Origin: a virus
Taxonomy: Duplodnaviria; Heunggongvirae; Uroviricota; Caudoviricetes
IMG/VR virus record: IMGVR_UViG_2744054675_000007
Coordinates: 1 to 32,492 of that record
Direction: 5' to 3' (one strand)
DNA: 32,492 nucleotides
The notes below the pieces were generated by a model that did not search any database, had not been told where the DNA came from, and saw only the letters and a list, made by a program, of their open reading frames with translations. The translations under genes and the position numbers were made by a program. Below are positions 1,369 through 30,268 of this stretch, in pieces. Numbering within the stretch: position 1 is the first letter of the stretch; each line of letters opens with the position of its first letter.

Positions 1369-1444
1369 GCCGATATAGCTCAGTTGGTAGAGCAGCGCAT
1401 TCGTAATGCGAAGGTCGTAGGTTCGACTCCTATTATCGGCACCA
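1369..1444 (+). tRNA. thrW: tRNA-Thr, anticodon CGT (thrW-type); its 3' end is the likely prophage attachment core
   Basis: 76 nt GCCGATATAGCTCAGTTGGTAGAGCAGCGCATTCGTAATGCGAAGGTCGTAGGTTCGACTCCTATTATCGGCACCA; folds as a cloverleaf with anticodon loop TTCGTAA and a 3' CCA. Confidence 0.85.
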
Positions 1445-1458
1445 TTTAAATCAATGAG

Positions 1459-2619
1459 TTACCTCACATTTAAGTAAACTACGTTCTCCTCTTGTGCCGT
1501 ATTTGTGCCATTGCGACTTATAATCGCATCGATTTTGCTCGCGTGCTCGGTGAGATGCCCGGCTGAAAGGTGAGCGTATCTTTGAACCATTTCGAGAGTT
1601 TCCCATCCACCCATCTCTTTAAGTGCAAGAAGAGAGACTCCGGACTGAACCAGCCAGCTTGCCCAGGTGTGTCTCAGGTCATGGAATCGGAAGTTGCTAA
1701 TGCCTGCCCGCTTTAACGCTCCCTTCCATGCTTTGTTGCTATCGGTTCTCATCTTCCTTACCGCAGCTGTTTTTGTTCCGTCGCTTCGGTAGGCAGGTTT
1801 GGTGTGGACAAATACCCATCTCTTATGGAGCCCCTGCTGTTTTCTTAATATCTGGCATGCGGTTTCGTTAAGAGGAACTCCGATCGCATTGCCAGCTTTT
1901 GTTTCATCAGGGTGCATCCATGCCATTTTCTTATCCAGATCGACCTGTGACCACTCAAGGTCTGTAACGTTGGAACGGCGAAGGCCTGTCGTGATTGCAA
2001 ACATGACCACAGGGAAGAAATGAGGAGCAATTTCTGCAAACAGGCGCTTCGATTCCTCCTCTGTAAGCCATCTAATGCGTCCATTCTTAACGCGTGGTGT
2101 TGATATTTTGGGAGCCCTGTCAAGCCATCCCCATTCAACAGCCATATTGAGAATAGCGCGAAGTATTGCCAGATGTCGCGTCTTCGTTCCTTTGCTTGCC
2201 AGCTTTGGTTTATACTCCGGCACTGGCTTGCCAATCCGCAAACACCTGTCCCGGCTCATTTCCCAGTTCAGGCGATGGCGGCGGTTTTCCATCCCGTCTA
2301 CCGCCTCCATTATTTTTTCTGTTGTTATGTCAGAGAGAATGGTTTCTCTGAAGTGCAACATCCAGAACGATATAATGCTCTTGTCATCATCAATGGACTT
2401 CTTATCCGATTTCTCACGCAGCCACCGTATGCAGGCTTCCTTGAATAGCTTTTTCGGCGATTCCCCGAGATTTTTTACTCTCCACGCTTCTGCTTTCAGA
2501 CGATCGTGAAGTTCTTGCGCTTGCCTTTTGTCCGATGTTTCAAGAGAGCGCCTAACTCTTGATCCATCTGGCGCGACGAAATCGCAGTGCCACGTGCCAC
2601 CGCGTAGTTTGATTGACAT
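1459..2619 (-). CDS. int: phage integrase, tyrosine recombinase
   Basis: 386 aa ORF; C-terminal catalytic region with the R...HDLRHTWASW...RYAHL (H-x-x-R ... Y) tyrosine recombinase signature; AGGAGG RBS upstream of the ATG at 2619; adjacent to the tRNA. Confidence 0.9.
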   Translation of the reverse strand: MSIKLRGGTWHCDFVAPDGSRVRRSLETSDKRQAQELHDRLKAEAWRVKNLGESPKKLFKEACIRWLREKSDKKSIDDDKSIISFWMLHFRETILSDITTEKIMEAVDGMENRRHRLNWEMSRDRCLRIGKPVPEYKPKLASKGTKTRHLAILRAILNMAVEWGWLDRAPKISTPRVKNGRIRWLTEEESKRLFAEIAPHFFPVVMFAITTGLRRSNVTDLEWSQVDLDKKMAWMHPDETKAGNAIGVPLNETACQILRKQQGLHKRWVFVHTKPAYRSDGTKTAAVRKMRTDSNKAWKGALKRAGISNFRFHDLRHTWASWLVQSGVSLLALKEMGGWETLEMVQRYAHLSAGHLTEHASKIDAIISRNGTNTAQEENVVYLNVR

Positions 2620-2843
2620 GCTTTAACCTCCTGCACATCAACCGCATTCACCGCGCTATTGTGTCCCACAGACTTAAGCGCCGCAATGCAGTCTGACTTG
2701 CAAATGCGATATGGACTTTTAGGTTTATCTGGATTTATCTTTGCGGCCTGAAGTCGTCCACTTCGTATCCACTGTGTGATAGTGCCTTTGTCTACCTTCA
2801 GATACGACGCAGCTTCTTCACGAGTGAAGATTTCTTCTTCCAC
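2496..2843 (-). CDS. xis: excisionase-like DNA-binding protein, about 115 aa, GTG start
   Basis: HTH-like segment EEAASYLKVDKGTITQWIRSGRL; GGAGA RBS 6 nt upstream of GTG at 2843; 3' end overlaps the int start as is common for xis-int pairs. The track ORF 2496..2915 has an unsupported N-terminal extension. Confidence 0.55.
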   Translation of the reverse strand: MEEEIFTREEAASYLKVDKGTITQWIRSGRLQAAKINPDKPKSPYRICKSDCIAALKSVGHNSAVNAVDVQEVKACQSNYAVARGTAISSRQMDQELGALLKHRTKGKRKNFTIV

Positions 2844-2942
2844 CTGGAATCTCCATTTATTGGATTGACATGATTGCTGTAGGTCTGGATATCTTGAGAA
2901 ATGAACAGGCCTCATCGAGTGTGAGGCTGTGTTATTTCATGG

Positions 2943-3287
2943 TTAGTCCTTGCGTAGCTCGCTGATTCTTCTGTAAGTCTCTGGCGCTTTGTTCCCGTGT
3001 ATCTTCATTTCAGACTTCAACAGAGCAACGAGGGAATCCCATTCGTTGAGGATGCCTTTGAATGCCGGAACGCGCTTTGCAACCTTGTTGAATGAATCTC
3101 TGATTTCTGGAATCTGCTCAACAAGTGCAACGCATCGCCGGAAGTCTGCTACGTCATATGGAGCGTCGAAGTGATGACCATAGATATTCTTTTTCAGTCC
3201 ACATGCGATTGAGGCAAGAGTTGCGCTACTGATGCCGACATCGCCTGTCGATTGCCATTTCAAAACCTTCATAGCTAAATCTGACAT
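2943..3287 (-). CDS. hypothetical protein, 114 aa
   Basis: ORF with GGAGA RBS before the ATG at 3287 (MSDLAMKVLK...); a terminator hairpin lies immediately upstream. Confidence 0.55.
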   Translation of the reverse strand: MSDLAMKVLKWQSTGDVGISSATLASIACGLKKNIYGHHFDAPYDVADFRRCVALVEQIPEIRDSFNKVAKRVPAFKGILNEWDSLVALLKSEMKIHGNKAPETYRRISELRKD

Positions 3288-3295
3288 TTCTTGTC

Positions 3296-3322
3296 TCCAA
3301 TAAAAAACCGCCATCAGGCGGC
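3296..3322 (-). terminator. rho-independent terminator-like hairpin directly followed by the RBS of the 2943..3287 gene
   Basis: Minus-strand GCCGCC-TGAT-GGCGG followed by TTTTTTATT, then GGAGACAAGAA-ATG. Confidence 0.5.
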
Positions 3323-3353
3323 TTGGTGTTCTTTCAGTTCTATTGGTTACGTC

Positions 3354-3665
3354 TTATTCGATGCGCACTCCTGGTATTTCGCCTTTTGATATTGCTAAGT
3401 CATAAATTTGCGCGGCACTATACCCATCTCGCATCCATGAATCTAAGGCGCGAACAGCCTGGCTACGCTTTTTATCTTCTCTCTCATTTTTGATATCAAC
3501 GAGGACATCAACGCAATTAAGGCAAATGTGGATTTTGTCCTTACATTCGATCATGGCGGCTTTGCCATGATTTCCGCCACACAGTGAGCATAAATCTTCA
3601 GGGTCTGGCTGGTATTGCTGTAATGTTAGAGGGTTGAATGTTGAACAGACCATAATCATCTCCAT
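3354..3665 (-). CDS. hypothetical protein with putative zinc-ribbon (CxxC...CxxC)
   Basis: 103 aa ORF containing CSLCGG ... CLNC cysteine pairs; sits in the int-proximal accessory region. Confidence 0.55.
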   Translation of the reverse strand: MEMIMVCSTFNPLTLQQYQPDPEDLCSLCGGNHGKAAMIECKDKIHICLNCVDVLVDIKNEREDKKRSQAVRALDSWMRDGYSAAQIYDLAISKGEIPGVRIE

Positions 3666-3724
3666 AAAACAAAACCCGCCATAGCGAGTTCAGATAAAAG
3701 AAATCCCCGCGAGTGCGAGGATTG

Positions 3725-4009
3725 TTATTCATTGCCGATATTCACCTTTATCGCGAACACCTTTACCGGTTTATCACCGAAGTGCGGATGTGTGATTGTC
3801 TTGATTTCATATCCGTCATACGGAACATCAATTCTGCGGCTGGAATCGTCGCGCTTCGGATATCCCTTTGTGATAATCAGTCGGTCATACTCCCGGAACA
3901 TAATTCGCTTATTCCAGTAGTCATTACACAGGCGATACTCTTCCGTTTTATCTCCGCGAATCATGGCATCGAAGTATTCACCTTTAACGGCAAGTTGCAG
4001 ATTAGCCAC
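3725..4009 (-). CDS. hypothetical protein, possible ASCH/PUA-like fold, GTG start
   Basis: GGAGG RBS followed by GTG at 4009 (VANLQLAVKGEYFDAMIRGDKTEEYRL...); start overlaps the stop of the upstream gene; domain call is from the motif pattern only. Confidence 0.45.
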   Translation of the reverse strand: MANLQLAVKGEYFDAMIRGDKTEEYRLCNDYWNKRIMFREYDRLIITKGYPKRDDSSRRIDVPYDGYEIKTITHPHFGDKPVKVFAIKVNIGNE

Positions 4010-4721
4010 GGTTAACCTCCTGAGGCGGTTCTGGTAGAGGCATCCAGTGTGTGACATTGCTAATCAGACCATATTCATTAGTTTGAGGATGGTTGCCGTT
4101 ATCGTCTCCGTATTTAAGACTCTCCATAAAGCCATAATGCCTATCACCATTAACGCTCACAAAGCCGTAATAAGCAGGTATAACGCCGATCTCACACGTA
4201 ACCAGTAAAGGAAAACTAGTTCTCCAATTTAGCTCGCCGATTACAGGCATCTGCTCACTACAGCTTATCCAACCATCCGGAGTTACCGGAGAGTTGCCAG
4301 CCTTACGCATGGCGGCGCGGCAGGCTTCATCAACCATAGCTTCTACGTTTTCGAGAAGTACGTAACTGTACTGCTGCCCGCTAACCCATTCTTTTCTGCG
4401 AGGTAATGCGCGTGGGTCCGCTACAATGGATCGCAAACGTTCCAGAACAGCTGGCACATCCGGCGCTGGCGGGGCGGCGTATACTTCAATTGTCCCATTA
4501 TCAATAGGCCACTCCCCATCCTTGATGTAGTCACTTGTGCCGTCAACTTGCTGTTCTGCAATGTGGAATGCACCTATTGGTTTTGCTTCCAGCGATGCCA
4601 GCGCAATTCGTGCCAGTTCTTTAAGATTTTCGCTATATGGTGAAGTATTATCACGGTTGATTACGTGATTAGCTGTATCTATGAGAACTTGCTTTTGTTC
4701 TTCTCTGTTCATAGTGGTCAT
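4002..4721 (-). CDS. hypothetical phage protein with C-terminal DUF551-like region
   Basis: AAGGAGAG RBS before ATG at 4721 (MTTMNREEQ...); C-terminal W/G/Y-rich segment resembles DUF551 as I recall it; the track ORF extends further upstream without RBS support. Confidence 0.5.
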   Translation of the reverse strand: MTTMNREEQKQVLIDTANHVINRDNTSPYSENLKELARIALASLEAKPIGAFHIAEQQVDGTSDYIKDGEWPIDNGTIEVYAAPPAPDVPAVLERLRSIVADPRALPRRKEWVSGQQYSYVLLENVEAMVDEACRAAMRKAGNSPVTPDGWISCSEQMPVIGELNWRTSFPLLVTCEIGVIPAYYGFVSVNGDRHYGFMESLKYGDDNGNHPQTNEYGLISNVTHWMPLPEPPQEVNRG

Positions 4722-4812
4722 CTCACTCTCCTTTGATGCGAATGCCAGGGGCGCGTGGCACATTAACTTCCACGATGCGCACAGTTGGTTTGTACATCTC
4801 AATCGCTGTCAG

Positions 4813-5364
4813 CTAGTCAGCGCCGGTCATATGCTTTTCTGCATCGCCATTAGTCCATTGAACCGGCACACCAATAGCTTTCATCGCAATTTCTATTTCC
4901 CCGGCAATGGCGCTTTTCCCGCAACCAGTAAAACCAGAGACAACGACAAGAACTTCGCCTTTGGCTGGTTTTATTTCCCGCGCTTCCAGTTCTGCTATGC
5001 GCTTTTTTGCTGCTTCCAGCTTCTTGTAAAGAGCATCCCAACTTGTCGAGTTATCCATAACCAGCTTTGTAACCCGCTCTTCGCGTGATTTGTAATACTC
5101 CAGCTCATCCAGCAGTGCCAGCGCAACATTTGGATTAAAAGCAGCAATAAATTCAGCGTTTGCATAAGCCTGAACATCTGTTTCAACCAGGCAGTTAACA
5201 TGACATTCCGCAATCACACCACCGGGTTCTCCTTTCCATTTTTGACAAACAAAAACTCCTGTTAAATTGCCGTGCTGGTTAACAGATGTATGCCCTACGA
5301 TGTAGCTTCCTTTAGTTGCTTTCTCTGCCTTTTCACGCAGTGCCTGATAGTCAATTTCGCTCAC
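4813..5364 (-). CDS. hypothetical early protein, possibly Ead/Ea22-like, GTG start
   Basis: AAGGAGG RBS before GTG at 5364 (VSEIDYQALREKAEK...); the longer track ORF (to 5556) would overlap lar in another frame. Confidence 0.45.
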   Translation of the reverse strand: MSEIDYQALREKAEKATKGSYIVGHTSVNQHGNLTGVFVCQKWKGEPGGVIAECHVNCLVETDVQAYANAEFIAAFNPNVALALLDELEYYKSREERVTKLVMDNSTSWDALYKKLEAAKKRIAELEAREIKPAKGEVLVVVSGFTGCGKSAIAGEIEIAMKAIGVPVQWTNGDAEKHMTGAD

Positions 5365-5584
5365 TGTTTGCCTCCTTTGCTCGCTGATTCCACTCTGCTC
5401 TAACCTCTGAATAAAAAATCGCACAGTCATTTCCAGGCGCTGCATATTTGCTACCAGATTGAGCGCGACACGTACCGCATCGAACGAAATAGAATCGACC
5501 GCCAGAGCCATATTCAGGGTGATCTGCTTCACTGGCAACGTGCGCTGCGCCGCCACAGAATGGACATGGTAGTAGGTTGCTCAT
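5351..5584 (-). CDS. lar: Lar-family restriction alleviation protein (anti-restriction)
   Basis: [12 protein letters not shown]... N-terminus with the CPFCGG plus later CGTC cysteine pattern typical of the Lar family; ATG overlaps the stop of the upstream gene in an ATGA. Confidence 0.65.
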   Translation of the reverse strand: MSNLLPCPFCGGAAHVASEADHPEYGSGGRFYFVRCGTCRAQSGSKYAAPGNDCAIFYSEVRAEWNQRAKEANSERN

Positions 5585-6198
5585 GAATGTACTCCCTTGC
5601 GAAGTTGGTCTGCACAATGCAGCAGGGCATCCGTCGCTTCTTTCACCGTAACGATGTCGCCATCGTCCAGCCCGACAACCGTCGCGTCCTTAACGAACAC
5701 CGAGCAAAGGTCATTAAACGCCTTAGCCCGCACTTCAGCCAGGAAGGCGTCAACCTGCGGAGTTTGCACTGTGATGCTGTCACGCAGGATGAAGTAAGCG
5801 TTAAGCATTCCGGTTTCAGGCATCTCCTCTGCATTAAATGCATCGATTGCAGCATCCATTACAGGGCCAAGTGGTTGAGGGTGTGCGCTACGGATAGCAT
5901 CACATTCAGCTATGATAGATTTGATTTTATCTACCAGGTCAGATGGTGACACGTCGTCAGCTGACCGATTAAACCCAAGCACCTCCCGAACTGCGCAAGA
6001 TTCCGACATTCTTTGGTCGGCTTGCCCTGCTGACATTGAGTAGCGAGCATTCTCCGCCGCCAGCGCCGAAATCTTAGCCTCCGCTTCAGCAAATTTACGC
6101 ACCAGATATTCAGCGTTTGTTTCGTTAACCTTTAAATCTCGTGGAATGCATTTACCTTTCAGAAAACCATCCATCTCAATTAGTGACATTTGTTTCAT
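5581..6198 (-). CDS. hypothetical protein, 205 aa
   Basis: Long ORF; ATGA start/stop overlap with the upstream small ORF and with lar downstream indicates a translationally coupled operon. Confidence 0.6.
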
Positions 6199-6359
6199 TT
6201 TTTCCCACTCCGCAACATCGCATTCAGATATTTGTTGTCATTAACAGAACCGAAACTATTTCTTTTAAGCAATTCCTCTCTCGATGGCATTGGCTTTACG
6301 CGTTGGCGAATAATCATTTCTGCAGGAAGAATGCCGGGGTTGTATGCAAGTCCTCTCAT
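6195..6359 (-). CDS. small hypothetical protein, 54 aa, below the ORF-track size cut-off
   Basis: [57 protein letters not shown]; ATGA overlaps at both ends with flanking genes. Confidence 0.35.
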
Positions 6360-6637
6360 GATTTACTCTCCACGAACTGGTCAATAGCCATGCTAAGTGA
6401 CACACCTAAAGTCTCGATATGCTGCTGAATATCCTGTAGCGTCTGCGCCTGAGATAACAGGATTTCACGGTTGCATAACTCTTTAACCAGATGCTCAAAC
6501 TTGCTGTAATAACCGATACGGCTTAGTGTTTCTTTCCCTGCATTATCACCTTCTTTAATAATTCCTCTTTCACTAAGAATCAGGTCGTGTTTTGTTCCGG
6601 TAATAACGTATTTGCCTAGGTCGATGTTTAGCTTCAT
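6356..6637 (-). CDS. hypothetical protein, 93 aa
   Basis: ORF with GGAG RBS upstream of ATG at 6637; part of the coupled leftward operon. Confidence 0.55.
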
Positions 6638-6653
6638 TGTTAATTACTCCATG

Positions 6654-6968
6654 TTAATTTATTCGTATGCCTTCTCTTTCTTCATCGAGTTTTTTTAGCT
6701 TGTATCGCATAGCTCTTACTGAATAAATTGAGCGGCAGGTTGCAATTGCTATTTCTTCTGCGGAGAACTTACCGAAAAGTGATACTTCGGCTCTTGTCCA
6801 GCGTCTTCCACGAAGTCGGCTAACAATGTCAGCGCCAATCCTTGTTGCTTTCGCCATTACTGCTTTTTCAGTCCTTTCCAGTTTTTCAGCGATAACTTCA
6901 ACTGGCATTGTTGCCGCTACTTCGCGCAAGAAATCGACTTCCCATTTCTCCCAAGGAGTCTTTTTCAT
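6654..6968 (-). CDS. hypothetical protein, 104 aa, two W-containing helix-rich repeats (possible HTH/Myb-like)
   Basis: ORF immediately downstream of the Gp157-like gene in the same orientation. Confidence 0.5.
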   Translation of the reverse strand: MKKTPWEKWEVDFLREVAATMPVEVIAEKLERTEKAVMAKATRIGADIVSRLRGRRWTRAEVSLFGKFSAEEIAIATCRSIYSVRAMRYKLKKLDEEREGIRIN

Positions 6969-6979
6969 AGGCGATACCG

Positions 6980-7468
6980 TTATTTGATAAGAAGTGAAGG
7001 TTTCCCAACTTTGAGTTGAGCGCCGGGGATATTTATTCCTGCTTTTAGTTGGTGTTTGATTGCCAGTTTGTCGGCTTTAATTGTCGTTTCAAACTCAACG
7101 TATTCAGGAGGAAGGGCGCTTGAGTCGATGATTTCTACAGTTTCTGACGGTTTGCGGATTGTTACCTGGTGAATACCTGCTCGAATCTTTTTCTTGCCAA
7201 CCATTTCAAGCGATGACGCTATATATGATTTGATGCTGTCAATCTTATTTTGAATTACTTCGGCTCGCTCATTTAGTGACTTTGCCTCTTCCTTGAGGCG
7301 CTCAGCATAACCAGATTCATTTTTGATGACGGAAAGAAGTTGCTCTATTTTATCGGTAAATTCTCCTTCCATGCCTTCTATTGTGTCAGCAATCATCTCT
7401 GGCTCTAAATCTGAATCCATCAATTTTGCGTATTCATTGGCAATTTCATATAGTTTGCTCACTGGCAA
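6980..7468 (-). CDS. Gp157-family protein, a common RecT/Erf companion in siphophage recombination modules
   Basis: 162 aa ORF beginning MPVSKLYEIANEYAKL...; acidic coiled-coil protein directly downstream of recT. Confidence 0.6.
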   Translation of the reverse strand: MPVSKLYEIANEYAKLMDSDLEPEMIADTIEGMEGEFTDKIEQLLSVIKNESGYAERLKEEAKSLNERAEVIQNKIDSIKSYIASSLEMVGKKKIRAGIHQVTIRKPSETVEIIDSSALPPEYVEFETTIKADKLAIKHQLKAGINIPGAQLKVGKPSLLIK

Positions 7469-8357
7469 CCTCCAGTTTTGCTTTGCATTCTGCGTAAATG
7501 GCTTGTACGTTCTGCTGCAATTTCATTCCAGATGTCAGGCGATATGCTTCTGCAAAATATCGCTTCAAATCATCCATGTTTTCTGCCTGAGCCATTTCAT
7601 CACAAAGAAGTTGTGCTTTTTCCATTATTTCCTGCTGGCGTTTCCGTTCATCTTCGCGGATATCTTCCTCTGATTTGTGCGGCATAACTGGTTCAGTCCA
7701 CACACCTTCTTCTTCGTTTAGTACGTGAATAGCACTATCAAGACGTGATGCCTTAGGCCAATACTTGCTTGCACGCTTTACGACCGTCTTTCGCGCCATC
7801 TCATTCCAGTGATTTACCCATGGTCCTTTATCGCTGAATGCTGCCTTGCTTGTTTTCCTTACAGCCTCAATTTCAGCCAGACTCATCTCTTCCGTTAGAT
7901 AATCACCTGCTGGCGTCTTAACTGTGCAGTAAACGCCAACGATATCACCACGATCACCGAAGGCGTTGTATTTATGGGTTGGTGCTTTATCAAGCCCGTT
8001 TGACTCATAGGTATCGTTAGCATGAACAAGTTTTGCCTGACCCCATGAGATAACACCAGACTCCATTGCAATATGGAGCAATCCCATATAACTGATATCA
8101 AGGCAAACCATGCCGTCGCGCGGAACTAGATAAGCAAGTTTGCTGGCCGGGTTTAAGGTGATGCCGATCGCCGCAACATTGATGATGGCGTTCTGTGCGC
8201 TGGTTGGATTTGCCAGTGCCGTTTTAGCCAGGTAATCGTTTTTCTGGAAATACTGAATTGCAAACTGGCTTTCCTTAGCCCATGTCACCGTCTGTTCAGT
8301 CAATGCTCCGCAGAATAACTGCTCCTGCTGTTTAACGAATTCAACGATATTGCTCAT
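7446..8357 (-). CDS. recT: RecT-family single-strand annealing recombinase
   Basis: 303 aa; segment GPWVNHWNEMARKTVVKRASKYWP matches my recollection of E. coli RecT (GPWVTHWEEMAKKTAIRRLFKYLP). Confidence 0.85.
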   Translation of the reverse strand: MSNIVEFVKQQEQLFCGALTEQTVTWAKESQFAIQYFQKNDYLAKTALANPTSAQNAIINVAAIGITLNPASKLAYLVPRDGMVCLDISYMGLLHIAMESGVISWGQAKLVHANDTYESNGLDKAPTHKYNAFGDRGDIVGVYCTVKTPAGDYLTEEMSLAEIEAVRKTSKAAFSDKGPWVNHWNEMARKTVVKRASKYWPKASRLDSAIHVLNEEEGVWTEPVMPHKSEEDIREDERKRQQEIMEKAQLLCDEMAQAENMDDLKRYFAEAYRLTSGMKLQQNVQAIYAECKAKLEVASEQTI

Positions 8358-8665
8358 GCAGCTTCTCCAAAAATGTGTCTGCGTTTGAATATTGCGAAGG
8401 CATATTCAGCCTTAACTCTTTCGGTTATTGCATCCCAGAACCATTCAGCGGCTTTTTCCTGATAGTTACAGTCATCATCTTCCAGCCAGTCGATAGCGTC
8501 CTTAGTGTGTTCATCTGGTTTATATGAGCGAAGCATTTCGCTTATTGGGTCGCAACGTTTGCAGAGGAGATCAACTTCACTGTTGATTCGCTCGTAATCT
8601 TCATCAGTAAAACTTGCGATTATTTGCGATATTTCACGCTTATCATTCAGAGTCAGAATCATCAT
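8354..8665 (-). CDS. hypothetical protein, 103 aa
   Basis: ORF whose stop overlaps the recT start (ATGA-type coupling). Confidence 0.5.
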   Translation of the reverse strand: MMILTLNDKREISQIIASFTDEDYERINSEVDLLCKRCDPISEMLRSYKPDEHTKDAIDWLEDDDCNYQEKAAEWFWDAITERVKAEYAFAIFKRRHIFGEAA

Positions 8666-17898: not shown

Positions 17899-17973
17899 GG
17901 GTCAGTCGTATAAAGGTCATTACGGAAGGCTGTTAACCTTCTTATCGTGGTTCGAGTCCACGCTGTCCCGCCA
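17899..17973 (+). tRNA. phage-encoded tRNA-like gene, anticodon GTT (Asn)
   Basis: 75 nt hand-folded cloverleaf: acceptor GGGTCAG/CTGTCCC (one T-T mismatch), anticodon stem GAAGG/CCTTC with loop CTGTTAA, canonical T-arm CGTGG-TTCGAGT-CCACG, 3' GCCA. Confidence 0.45.
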
Positions 17974-17978
17974 AACAT

Positions 17979-18054
17979 GCTGATTTAGCTCCAATGGTAG
18001 AGCAGTCGCCTTGTAAGCGAATGGGTAGCGGGTCAAGTCCGTTAACCAGCACCA
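17979..18054 (+). tRNA. phage-encoded tRNA-like gene, anticodon TGT (Thr)
   Basis: 76 nt hand-folded cloverleaf: acceptor GCTGATT/AACCAGC (one mismatch), D-arm GCTC-CAATGGTA-GAGC, anticodon loop CTTGTAA, T-arm AGCGG-GTCAAGT-CCGTT, 3' ACCA. Confidence 0.45.
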
Positions 18055-28849: not shown

Positions 28850-30268
28850 ATGCCGATTCAGCAACTTCCGCTTATGAAAGGTGTCGGCAAAGACTTCCGA
28901 AACGCCGACTATATCGACTATCTGCCAGTGAATATGCTGGCTACACCCAAAGAAATACTCAACAGCAGCGGATATCTTCGCTCATTCCCGGGCATTGCCA
29001 AACGCTCTGATGTAAACGGTGTATCGCGCGGAGTCGAGTACAACATGGCGCAGAATGCTGTTTATCGCGTGTGTGGCAGCAAGCTGTATAAGGGCGAAAG
29101 TGAAGTCGGTGATGTTGCCGGAAGTGGTAGAGTATCAATGGCGCATGGTCGAACATCTCAGGCTGTAGGCGTTAATGGTCAACTGGTCGAGTATCGTTAT
29201 GATGGCACGGTTAAAACCGTCTCAAACTGGCCTACAGACAGTGGATTCACTCAGTATGAGTTAGGTTCAGTTCGCGACATTACGCGCTTACGTGGGCGTT
29301 ATGCGTGGTCAAAAGACGGCACTGATTCATGGTTTATCACTGACCTTGAAGACGAATCGCACCCTGACCGCTACAGCGCACAATATCGTGCCGAGTCGCA
29401 GCCTGACGGCATCATCGGCATCGGAACATGGCGAGACTTCATCGTCTGCTTTGGTTCATCGACGATTGAATATTTCTCCCTGACGGGTGCAACAACCGTT
29501 GGTGCCGCGTTGTATGTCGCACAGCCATCGCTGATGGTGCAGAAAGGCATTGCCGGAACCTACTGCAAAACGCCGTTTGCTGATTCCTATGCGTTCATCA
29601 GCAATCCGGCAACAGGTGCGCCGTCTGTGTATATCATCGGCTCAGGTCAGGTATCACCAATCGCCAGCGCGAGCATTGAGAAAATACTACGCTCCTACAC
29701 TGCTGATGAACTGGCTGATGGCGTGATGGAATCGTTGCGGTTTGATGCTCATGAGTTGCTGATTATTCACCTGCCGCGCCATGTTCTTGTTTACGACGCA
29801 TCTTCAAGCGCCAATGGTCCGCAATGGTGTGTGTTGAAAACAGGCCTGTATGACGATGTGTACCGCGCTATCGACTTCATTTACGAAGGCAATCAGATAA
29901 CGTGCGGCGATAAGCTGGAGTCCGTGACCGGGAAATTGCAATTCGACATCAGCAGCCAGTACGACAAGCAACAGGAACACCTGCTGTTTACTCCGTTGTT
30001 CAAAGCGGATAACGCCAGAGTGTTCGACCTTGAGGTTGAATCGTCAACTGGCGTTGCGCAGTACGCCGACCGCCTTTTTCTCTCTGCAACCACTGACGGC
30101 ATCAATTACGGGCGTGAGCAGATGATTGAGCAGAATGAACCGTTCGTTTACGACAAGCGTGTTTTGTGGAAGCGAGTAGGGCGCATCAGGAAAAATGTCG
30201 GCTTCAAATTGCGCGTTATCACGAAGTCATCTGTCACTCTGTCTGGCGCTCAGATAAGGATTGAGTAA
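28850..30268 (+). CDS. head completion protein, P22 gp10-like
   Basis: 472 aa ORF at the gp10 position. Confidence 0.75.

Follow-up and report, generated by a model that had tools for sequence, protein, structure and literature searches.

What do the three small genes lying close to int in this prophage encode, and what might their products do for the phage? We analyzed a 32,492-nucleotide stretch of phage DNA (the window), in which three open reading frames, all on the minus strand, lie inside positions 3354-4721. A first-pass annotation made from the letters alone had taken this region for variable int-proximal cargo and had tentatively called a zinc-ribbon protein, an ASCH/PUA-like protein and a DUF551-like protein. 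We find that all three are genuine, though unremarkable, accessory genes of a P22/lambda-type prophage, and that one of them encodes a probable homolog of the ClpX zinc-binding domain (ZBD), which is the one mildly new point of the analysis. The genes and the segments that flank them are these:

4002..4721, minus strand: DUF551 protein gene, 239 amino acids, ATG at 4721; a mosaic of the P22 EaA type
3725..4009, minus strand: ASCH protein gene, 94 amino acids, GTG at 4009 with GGAGG 6 nucleotides upstream; phrog_625
3654..3724, minus strand: linker between the ASCH and zinc-finger genes, with two terminator-like hairpins and the GGAG ribosome-binding site of the zinc-finger gene
3723-3702 and 3691-3672, minus strand: the two hairpins of this linker, from a terminator scan
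3354..3653, minus strand: zinc-finger protein gene, 99 amino acids, ATG at 3653 with GGAG 6 nucleotides upstream; phrog_3680
3305..3324, minus strand: intrinsic-terminator-like hairpin just 3' of the zinc-finger gene, from the same kind of scan; homologous to lambda t5

Gene limits and position in the early left operon

The three reading frames are conserved genes and not chance open reading frames. Conservation was a point on which the first-pass annotation had made its reading depend, and homologs were found for all three: 671 for the ASCH protein, 36 for the zinc-finger protein and at least 7964 for the DUF551 protein. PHROG matches are strong for the zinc-finger protein (phrog_3680, E=4e-68) and for the other two (2e-50 and 2e-45). 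Independent gene calls made on an NCBI E. coli contig that matches the window also give products of 239, 94 and 99 amino acids. For the zinc-finger gene the 99-residue frame from 3653 is preferred over a 103-residue reading frame starting at 3665, and for the ASCH gene the 94-residue frame is preferred over one of 110 residues. The stop of the DUF551 gene overlaps the start of the ASCH gene by 8 nucleotides.

The genes belong to the early operon that is transcribed leftward from pL in a P22-like prophage, which sits at tRNA-Thr (thrW) beside proA, includes int and has P22-type late genes downstream. [quoted passage not shown] The slot filled by the zinc-finger gene, between conserved terminator linkers, is the one taken by orf55 in lambda and HK022. 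The operon, the position next to xis and the near-identical flanking linkers are all shared with the ea8.5/orf55 slot of lambda; in contrast to lambda, the ASCH gene takes the place of ea8.5, the ClpX-ZBD-like gene takes the place of orf55, and an extra gene of 114 amino acids (phrog_1229) lies between the slot and xis.

The linker at 3654..3724 is near-identical in lambda (where it lies between ea8.5 and orf55), HK022 and Sp5, and its RNA has a predicted fold of -24.6 kcal/mol (z=-3.9). Its second hairpin, 3691-3672, ends 18 nucleotides before the ATG of the zinc-finger gene and corresponds to the predicted terminator t4 of Bloch et al. 2014 (PMC4195576). The same paper lists the predicted lambda terminator t5, which lies just 3' of orf55. 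The hairpin at 3305..3324 (fold z=-4.7) has an exact 23-nucleotide match in lambda at 29106-29128. A scan of positions 2400-8500 against Rfam returned no family, and no sigma-70-like site was detected on the minus strand from 3300 to 4900. We considered whether the zinc-finger gene might be a 'moron' expressed in the lysogen and rejected this for want of a promoter. Terminators do stand on both sides, as a moron might have, but there is no promoter-like site nearby and the predicted slot terminators of lambda match those of the window almost exactly, and these two points argue against such a gene.

The three genes are independent accessory genes that have been shuffled by recombination. Parts of a 2-kb stretch covering them occur in 3809 of the 5426 complete E. 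coli genomes, and none of these genomes contains 80% or more of it. The block made of the zinc-finger and ASCH genes is 98% identical to that of 933W/Sp5. A functional pairing of these two genes was rejected, because Sf6 carries the zinc-finger gene without an adjoining ASCH gene and HK022 carries the ASCH gene without the zinc-finger gene. The mosaic distribution across E. coli genomes makes the variable-cargo character of the region, as first proposed, a real one.

A zinc-finger protein related to the ClpX zinc-binding domain

Of the three products, that of the gene nearest to xis appears from profile comparisons to consist of a free-standing C4 finger of the ClpX type with a C-terminal tail of helices after it. 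The finger was located with the family profile, hhalign and Pfam:

3480..3590, minus strand: ClpX-ZBD-like zinc finger, residues 22-58, CSLCGGNHGKAAMIECKDKIHICLNCVDVLVDIKNER

The two CxxC pairs noted at the outset are indeed present. Their cysteines (C22xxC25 and C44xxC47, with 18 residues between the pairs) do not vary among 18 diverse homologs with identities down to 26%, and the CxxC-18-CxxC spacing equals that of E. coli ClpX. All three of the original domain calls hold, with the qualification that 'zinc-ribbon' was too generic for a finger homologous to the N-terminal C4 zinc-binding domain of ClpX. When the family profile was compared with PDB sequences the top seven matches were all ClpX (best E=1.3e-7), hhalign against residues 1-60 of E. 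coli ClpX gave a probability of 96.9% (E=1.3e-10), and the Pfam family zf-C4_ClpX (PF06689) was matched by 15 of 18 family members (best E=3.3e-11). One distant member (P0288) is strikingly ClpX-like: GGPDGLKICRDCVSLCNDIIRD.

The likeness depends on the breadth of the profile, and it became significant only after distant members from a search of 1.84 billion proteins had entered. The protein alone scores 15.8 bits against PF06689, below the cut-off of 27; a single-sequence search of the PDB gave no significant match, and a profile of the narrow family reached only E=0.62 there. The search of 1.84 billion proteins recovered no ClpX sequence at E<=0.001. It contained only 20 representative clusters of this family, which is confined to phages of Enterobacterales. 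As in the ClpX ZBD (PDB 1OVX, 2DS5-8), a long helix with the pattern ICxxCVDLxxxIxxE begins at the second CxxC; identity is 35% over 40 aligned columns, and the profile-level match is significant. The AlphaFold2 model is too poor for a fold search: the finger has pLDDT of about 52 and shows helices instead of a treble clef, and within it only the helix beginning at the second CxxC is confident.

The protein gave no match to an AAA+ module, and its C-terminal 45 residues or so form two predicted helices that are unrelated to ClpX; it would thus be a homolog of the ZBD and not a ClpX. The gene equals Sf6 gp19, 933W L0063 and Sakai ECs_1162, and the protein is 96-97% identical to those of Sf6 and 933W. 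We also considered kinship with the lambda Ea8.5 type of homeodomain/zinc-finger protein. The zinc site of Ea8.5 is C-terminal, and the searches of PDB sequences brought up no Ea8.5 structure, so this candidate was dropped.

The ASCH and DUF551 proteins

From its predicted model and its motif, the 94-residue protein is a minimal PUA-like beta-barrel of the GKER subgroup of ASCH proteins, with the GxKxxExR pocket motif. The motif is seen in the translation and in the alignment of homologs:

3932..3955, minus strand: ASCH octapeptide GDKTEEYR (GxKxxExR), residues 19-26

G19, K21, E24 and R26 do not vary across 33 homologs; in the HK022 copy, Arg stands where the motif has Gly. In the predicted model (pLDDT 85.5) the octapeptide sits between a helix (residues 10-18) and a strand (23-27), and in fold the model comes closest to ASCH proteins, among them the ac4C amidohydrolase YqfB. 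In EOLA1 the octapeptide likewise lies between helix alpha1 and strand beta2 (PMC6803910, which also defines the motif). A PUA-like barrel with helix alpha1 followed by the octapeptide is common to the GKER ASCH proteins TthASCH (2DP9), EOLA1 (5Y7D), TRIP4-ASCH and ZmASCH (5GUQ), and the octapeptide has the same residue numbers, 19-26, as in EOLA1 and YqfB (9KYF, GKTR subgroup). Unlike these known proteins, the one described here is phage-encoded, belongs among the smaller members of the family, and falls below Pfam and hhalign significance in sequence similarity. Its motif aligns residue for residue with residues 19-26 of YqfB in an hhalign comparison that is not significant (E=0.43). The ASCH call is therefore sustained by the octapeptide and the predicted fold, and not by the Pfam score: PF04266 matches residues 6-28 only, scoring 13 bits (E=0.17) where the cut-off is 21.2, and 19 of the 33 homologs match it, all below threshold (best E=0.013). 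A single-sequence search of the PDB found nothing significant, and a profile search of PDB sequences found no ASCH entry.

The ASCH gene equals Sakai ECs_1163 and HK022 gp34. It was found in 332 phage records, those of virulent Jerseyvirus and Ralstonia phages among them, and the protein is 52-77% identical in virulent phages of Salmonella, Klebsiella, Erwinia and Ralstonia; its role is thus not specific to lysogeny. Comparison with four homologs gave dN/dS values of 0.09-0.22. About 45% of complete E. coli genomes carry an ASCH domain of the GKER type.

The largest of the three proteins is, judged from its sequence, a mosaic whose C-terminal 95 residues are a DUF551 domain:

4020..4274, minus strand: DUF551 domain, residues 150-234, Pfam PF04448 (E=4.8e-11, 43.8 bits)

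The match spans the whole profile (1-68 of 68) and lies well above the gathering score of 22, so that what had been called DUF551-like is DUF551 proper. Nearly all homologs carry a precomputed PF04448 record. The C-terminal module recurs, at least 90% identical, behind other N-termini in 34 proteins of 273-408 amino acids. P22 EaA, YfdS of E. coli CPS-53 and variant V2 of Ea22 in Stx phages have the same C-terminal PF04448 ending in THWMPLPEPP. The early-left accessory location is also that of EaA-type proteins, and in 933W-type phages the annotation is EaA-like. In contrast to P22 EaA, YfdS and Ea22 V2, the N-terminal 140 residues are a different mosaic, made of phrog_660 and phrog_3323 pieces. 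This combination of N-terminus and DUF551 was seen on a single contig, an NCBI E. coli contig that encodes the one exact match (P0157). A single-sequence PDB search with the protein gave nothing significant. DUF551 is found fused to Ea22 coiled coils and to a MazZ-type pyrophosphohydrolase (PMC10834534; PF04447 co-matches here). The exchange of N-termini suggests that the domain most likely serves as a portable binding module with no catalytic activity, which would tether variable N-terminal modules to a common partner.

Possible roles in early infection

For the locus as a whole we consider it somewhat probable that shuffled early-left accessory genes, whose three products have early host-directed roles, is the correct explanation. 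The products are most likely early host-modulating proteins. All three genes would be expressed only when N-antiterminated transcription from pL passes the terminators, early after induction or infection, and the proteins would then act on host processes and not on virion production. Their place in the early left operon, with a Lar-like restriction-alleviation gene as neighbor, agrees with such a role. The first-pass annotation had put forward host-interaction or anti-defense factors as plausible. The PADLOC defense-protein models gave no match at E<=0.01 for the three proteins, NCBIfam gave no usable match for any of them, and literature searches found no paper and no experiment on these genes or proteins, the locus tags ECs1162-4 and L0063-5 leading only to unrelated papers.

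The zinc-finger protein most likely forms a dimer resembling that of the ClpX ZBD, to judge from its sequence. This dimer could act as a decoy, diverting proteins whose docking site is the ClpX N-domain, or, alternatively, could be a mere dimerization scaffold that presents the conserved C-terminal helices. [quoted passage not shown] By analogy with other GKER-type proteins, the ASCH protein would most likely bind RNA and hydrolyze an N4-acyl group on cytidine, with the Lys21/Glu24 dyad doing the chemistry. An example of a target is ac4C34 of elongator tRNA-Met, which in E. coli carries ac4C made by TmcA (PMC2500205). In a recent preprint, ac4C was removed from tRNA by each of the 19 ASCH proteins tested, and the Lys and Glu of the octapeptide were essential for this activity; no phage ASCH protein was among the assayed enzymes (bioRxiv 10.64898/2026.02.27.708502).

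The ASCH protein could instead be a non-enzymatic reader of a modified base or a nucleic-acid end, of the YTH, EVE or TRIP4-ASCH type, or a ribonuclease like ZmASCH, and might shield or process RNA or DNA of the phage or of the host, for instance in restriction alleviation. We consider this rather unlikely, since K21 and E24, the catalytic dyad of GKER deacetylases, are invariant together with R26 across the 33 homologs, the activity has been found in every ASCH protein assayed so far, and the best structural matches are ASCH proteins proper, not YTH or EVE. A more general alternative is that the three genes are inert hitch-hikers, selfish cargo or decaying reading frames kept by linkage and recombination, as the extreme mosaicism and the absence of a reported phenotype would suggest. 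The exo-xis region is, moreover, dispensable for lambda growth (PMC10834534). However, purifying selection on the ASCH gene, its retention in virulent phages, where inert DNA is not kept, the invariance of the Cys ligands and motif residues, the intact ribosome-binding sites and the translationally coupled starts and stops make inert cargo a very improbable account.

A more specific proposal for the zinc-finger protein is that it mimics the adaptor-docking domain of ClpX and selectively shuts off adaptor-dependent ClpXP proteolysis early in lytic growth. It might titrate proteins that need the ClpX ZBD as a docking site (for example SspB, RssB-sigma-S, lambda-O-type replication initiators or antitoxins), or might form heterodimers with ClpX's own ZBD. 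Were this so, phage replication proteins would be stabilized or toxin-antitoxin-based abortive infection would be blocked, an anti-protease strategy parallel to those by which cIII acts against FtsH and RexB against ClpP. Literature searches for phage ClpX-finger proteins or inhibitors found nothing relevant, and we hold the mimic to be decidedly unlikely in this specific form. A real, if doubtful, possibility is that the protein has nothing to do with ClpXP, its finger being a zinc-stabilized module for dimerization or nucleic-acid binding and its C-terminal helices (...IYDAIxxGKIPxxRI) the functional part, as an analog of orf55 and, for example, a small transcription or anti-restriction factor. 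Conservation of the C-terminal motif is independent of the finger, orf55 is what the gene replaces in its slot, and zinc fingers recur in early lambdoid proteins such as Lar and Ea8.5. [quoted passage not shown] Against a role apart from ClpXP, the likeness to ClpX extends past the four cysteines into the helix that follows, and the ClpX-like appearance of distant members suggests that a shared binding surface has been retained.

As it stands the importance of these genes is small, since near-identical ones have already been deposited for 933W, Sp5, Sf6 and HK022, and RefSeq gives two of the three the same domain names. Because the preprint cited above reports that ASCH proteins erase tRNA ac4C, and because the GKER-type domain is found in so many E. 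coli genomes and in virulent phages, possible phage editing of the wobble modification of host tRNA-Met would be worth testing. The exo-xis region shifts the balance between lysis and lysogeny and the induction of Stx prophages. The principal Stx2 phages of E. coli O157:H7 carry a 'hypothetical protein' that is probably a stand-alone homolog of the ClpX adaptor-docking domain, and this homology may offer a concrete and cheap hypothesis for one piece of the 'dark matter' of that region.

Prophage setting and gene limits

From its proA/tRNA-Thr/integrase start and its early, replication, lysis and P22-type head genes, the window is a lambdoid prophage of the P22-like kind, integrated at thrW. 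An excisionase-like HTH ORF follows the integrase gene. Further along are genes for an Ead/Ea22-like protein, a Lar-like restriction-alleviation protein, Gp157 and RecT, with the replication, lysis and P22-type head genes beyond. The features that frame the region, and the three genes considered here, are as follows:

1-1254, 3' end of proA, which opens the window
1369-1444, tRNA-Thr(CGT) gene
1459-2619, minus strand, tyrosine integrase gene
3354-3653, minus strand, Zn gene (99 aa; ATG start at 3653, GGAG 6 nt upstream)
3725-4009, minus strand, ASCH gene (94 aa; GTG start at 4009, GGAGG 6 nt upstream)
4721-4002, minus strand, DUF551 gene (239 aa; TAA stop)

The three ORFs noted in the first-pass annotation are present, all on the minus strand (3354-4721), and reading the DNA refined their limits. 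They are real genes: PHROG profiles (E-values 1e-45 to 1e-68) start exactly at the refined start of each, homologs number from hundreds to thousands, and dN/dS for the ASCH gene is 0.09–0.22. One NCBI E. coli contig encodes precisely this DUF551 protein and shows an identical gene order; the products called there independently are 239, 94 and 99 aa long. The DUF551 stop and the ASCH start share 8 nt (GTGGCTAA), a junction that recurs in strain 998 and phage HK022, where ASCH has another gene before it.

The three genes belong to the leftward early operon and sit between xis and the recombination module. The region is the counterpart of the lambda exo-xis region, which is dispensable, is transcribed early from pL and affects the lysis-lysogeny decision (PMC10834534, PMC8614690). 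A scan of the minus strand from 3300 to 4900 found no promoter-like site ahead of any of the three genes, so their expression should need N-antiterminated transcription from pL. Such dependence does not fit a moron expressed in the lysogen.

Several neighbors were also noted. The truly int-proximal cargo gene, outside the three-gene region, is a 114-aa gene between the Zn gene and xis (2943-3287, minus strand; phrog_1229, 'N15 early protein homolog' in HK022) with no Pfam match. The Ead/Ea22-like gene (4813-5364, minus strand) has its true start at GTG 5364, preceded by GGAGG, and encodes 183 aa rather than the 247 aa of the longer ORF. It overlaps the stop of the 77-aa Lar-like gene (5351-5584, minus strand) by 14 nt, and its frame has no entry in the gene list of the matching contig. 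In the late-regulatory/lysis region, at 17899-18054, the prophage carries two tRNA genes of its own, for Asn(GTT) and Thr(TGT).

The Zn protein and the orf55 slot

The first-pass annotation called the Zn protein a zinc ribbon. Among homologs, C22/C25 and C44/C47, the two CxxC pairs separated by 18 residues, never vary. The single sequence only hints at a ClpX C4 finger (15.8 bits in Pfam, where the cut-off is 27; PDB entry 2ds7, E=0.06). The family is very small and all its members come from Enterobacterales phages or prophages: there are 36 clusters at 90% identity, and a search of 1.84 billion proteins yields only 20 representatives. [quoted passage not shown] Moreover, hhalign against E. 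coli ClpX 1-60 gave 96.9% probability, 15 of 18 family members matched Pfam zf-C4_ClpX (best E=3.3e-11), and the pattern CS(F/L)CG...(Y/H)ICxxCVD(L/V)xxDIxxE is common to both. These matches identify the 'ribbon', at the level of sequence, as a stand-alone homolog of the ClpX ZBD. AF2 models the finger poorly and thus gives its fold no independent support; the remainder is confidently predicted as a long and a short helix, with a conserved C-terminal end (...IYDAIxxGKIPxxRI(D/E)).

The ClpX ZBD is a docking platform for SspB and RssB, and free ZBD in trans inhibits RssB-dependent degradation of sigma-S (PMC7226468). A decoy or anti-adaptor role for the Zn protein is therefore mechanistically possible; we found no literature on a phage protein with a stand-alone ClpX-type finger acting in this way.

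About 72 nt separate the ASCH and Zn genes (3654-3724, minus strand) and contain two terminator-like hairpins and the Zn-gene ribosome-binding site. This linker is ~97% identical to the lambda ea8.5-orf55 spacer and to its HK022 and Sp5 equivalents, with homology breaking off exactly at the next gene's start codon. On the other side, lambda has an identical copy, just 3' of orf55, of the hairpin that follows the Zn gene (3324-3305). Of the terminators predicted by Bloch et al. 2014 (PMC4195576), t4 is the second upstream hairpin and t5 the downstream one. Because both linkers match the sequences on either side of lambda orf55 (NC_001416, about 29336-29353 and 29106-29128), and their HK022 and Sp5 counterparts, at about 97–100% identity, the Zn gene is assigned as an alternative (allelic) cassette in the orf55 slot, between conserved terminators. 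The linker is found in 316 phage records and the Zn gene in only 52, which marks a conserved cassette-exchange slot, with the linkers as obvious substrates for module exchange.

The ASCH and DUF551 proteins

The ASCH protein has no significant match in Pfam or NCBIfam, and the PF04266 search proposed earlier as a check formally fails (13 bits against a cut-off of 21.2). The ASCH call is instead favored by the octapeptide G19-x-K21-x-x-E24-x-R26, invariant in 33 homologs, and by the RefSeq name of the 94-aa protein. The signature octapeptide of ASCH proteins lies between helix alpha1 and strand beta2 (PMC6803910), its position in our model. ASCH proteins are the best fold matches, but with modest scores and YTH/EVE-type readers close behind, and we therefore class the protein within the 'GKER' subgroup as a minimal, divergent ASCH.

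A 2026 preprint reports that each of 19 ASCH proteins assayed removed ac4C from tRNA, an activity for which Lys and Glu of the octapeptide were essential (bioRxiv 10.64898/2026.02.27.708502); unlike the protein studied here, none is phage-encoded. E. coli elongator tRNA-Met carries ac4C34 (PMC2500205). By analogy, our preferred mechanism is that the protein would bind RNA and hydrolyze N4-acylcytidine in a K21/E24-dependent manner. A non-catalytic reader or a nuclease is a serious rival. The protein probably serves lytic growth generally rather than lysogeny, since its gene occurs in 332 phage records that include virulent Jerseyvirus, Klebsiella, Erwinia and Ralstonia phages.

In the HK022 homolog (positions 3613-3897 of its record), Arg replaces the otherwise invariant Gly19 (RREK rather than RGEK/RGDK), and the pocket may be inactivated or altered. 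A close structural neighbor of the model, the 168-aa viral 'Restriction alleviation protein' A0A8S5UN54 in BFVD (28% identity, TMq 0.68), may combine a Lar-type zinc finger with an ASCH of this type in one chain; if so, it would functionally link the ASCH and Lar-like genes of one operon.

Residues 150-234 of the DUF551 protein match the entire PF04448 profile (E=4.8e-11). The C-terminal 95–100 aa are shared, with at least 90% identity, by 34 proteins of 273–408 aa that begin with other N-termini, and the N-terminal 140 aa of the protein here are themselves a patchwork. Fusion partners include Ea22 coiled coils and MazZ-type pyrophosphohydrolases. DUF551 is also carried by YfdS of CPS-53, loss of which sensitizes cells to H2O2. 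A PDB sequence search found no structure. The most economical reading is that DUF551 is a portable binding domain.

Mosaicism and standing

The region is strongly mosaic. None of 5426 complete E. coli genomes carries at least 80% of the 2-kb stretch, and pieces occur in 3809. The Zn+ASCH block is 98% identical to its counterpart in Stx2 phages 933W and Sp5 and is found in 43 phage records and 133 genomes. The two genes are not an obligate pair: in Sf6 the Zn gene adjoins a Lar-like gene, and in HK022 ASCH adjoins an orf55 homolog. In a 257-aa Zn homolog (P0279), the first 180 aa are of a kind usual in mosaic EaA/DUF551-type proteins (...PVAWTDEEEL...) and are fused to the last two-thirds of the Zn protein, from which the first CxxC is missing. 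Probably the product of a recombinant or a pseudogene, it shows recombination within Zn/EaA/DUF551-type genes themselves.

The earlier interpretation is thus partly supported: its domain calls stand (ASCH by octapeptide and RefSeq name, the zinc protein refined to a ClpX-type finger, PF04448), and RefSeq names already match two of them; the host-interaction or anti-defense functions that it put forward are candidates. None of the three proteins matches a defense-system model. Nearly the same sequences are present in 933W, Sp5, Sf6 and HK022, and the three-gene interval is an ordinary prophage feature. Modestly new are the homology to the ClpX ZBD, in a protein that all annotations call hypothetical, and the recognition that its gene and lambda orf55 are allelic cassettes with conserved terminators on both sides.
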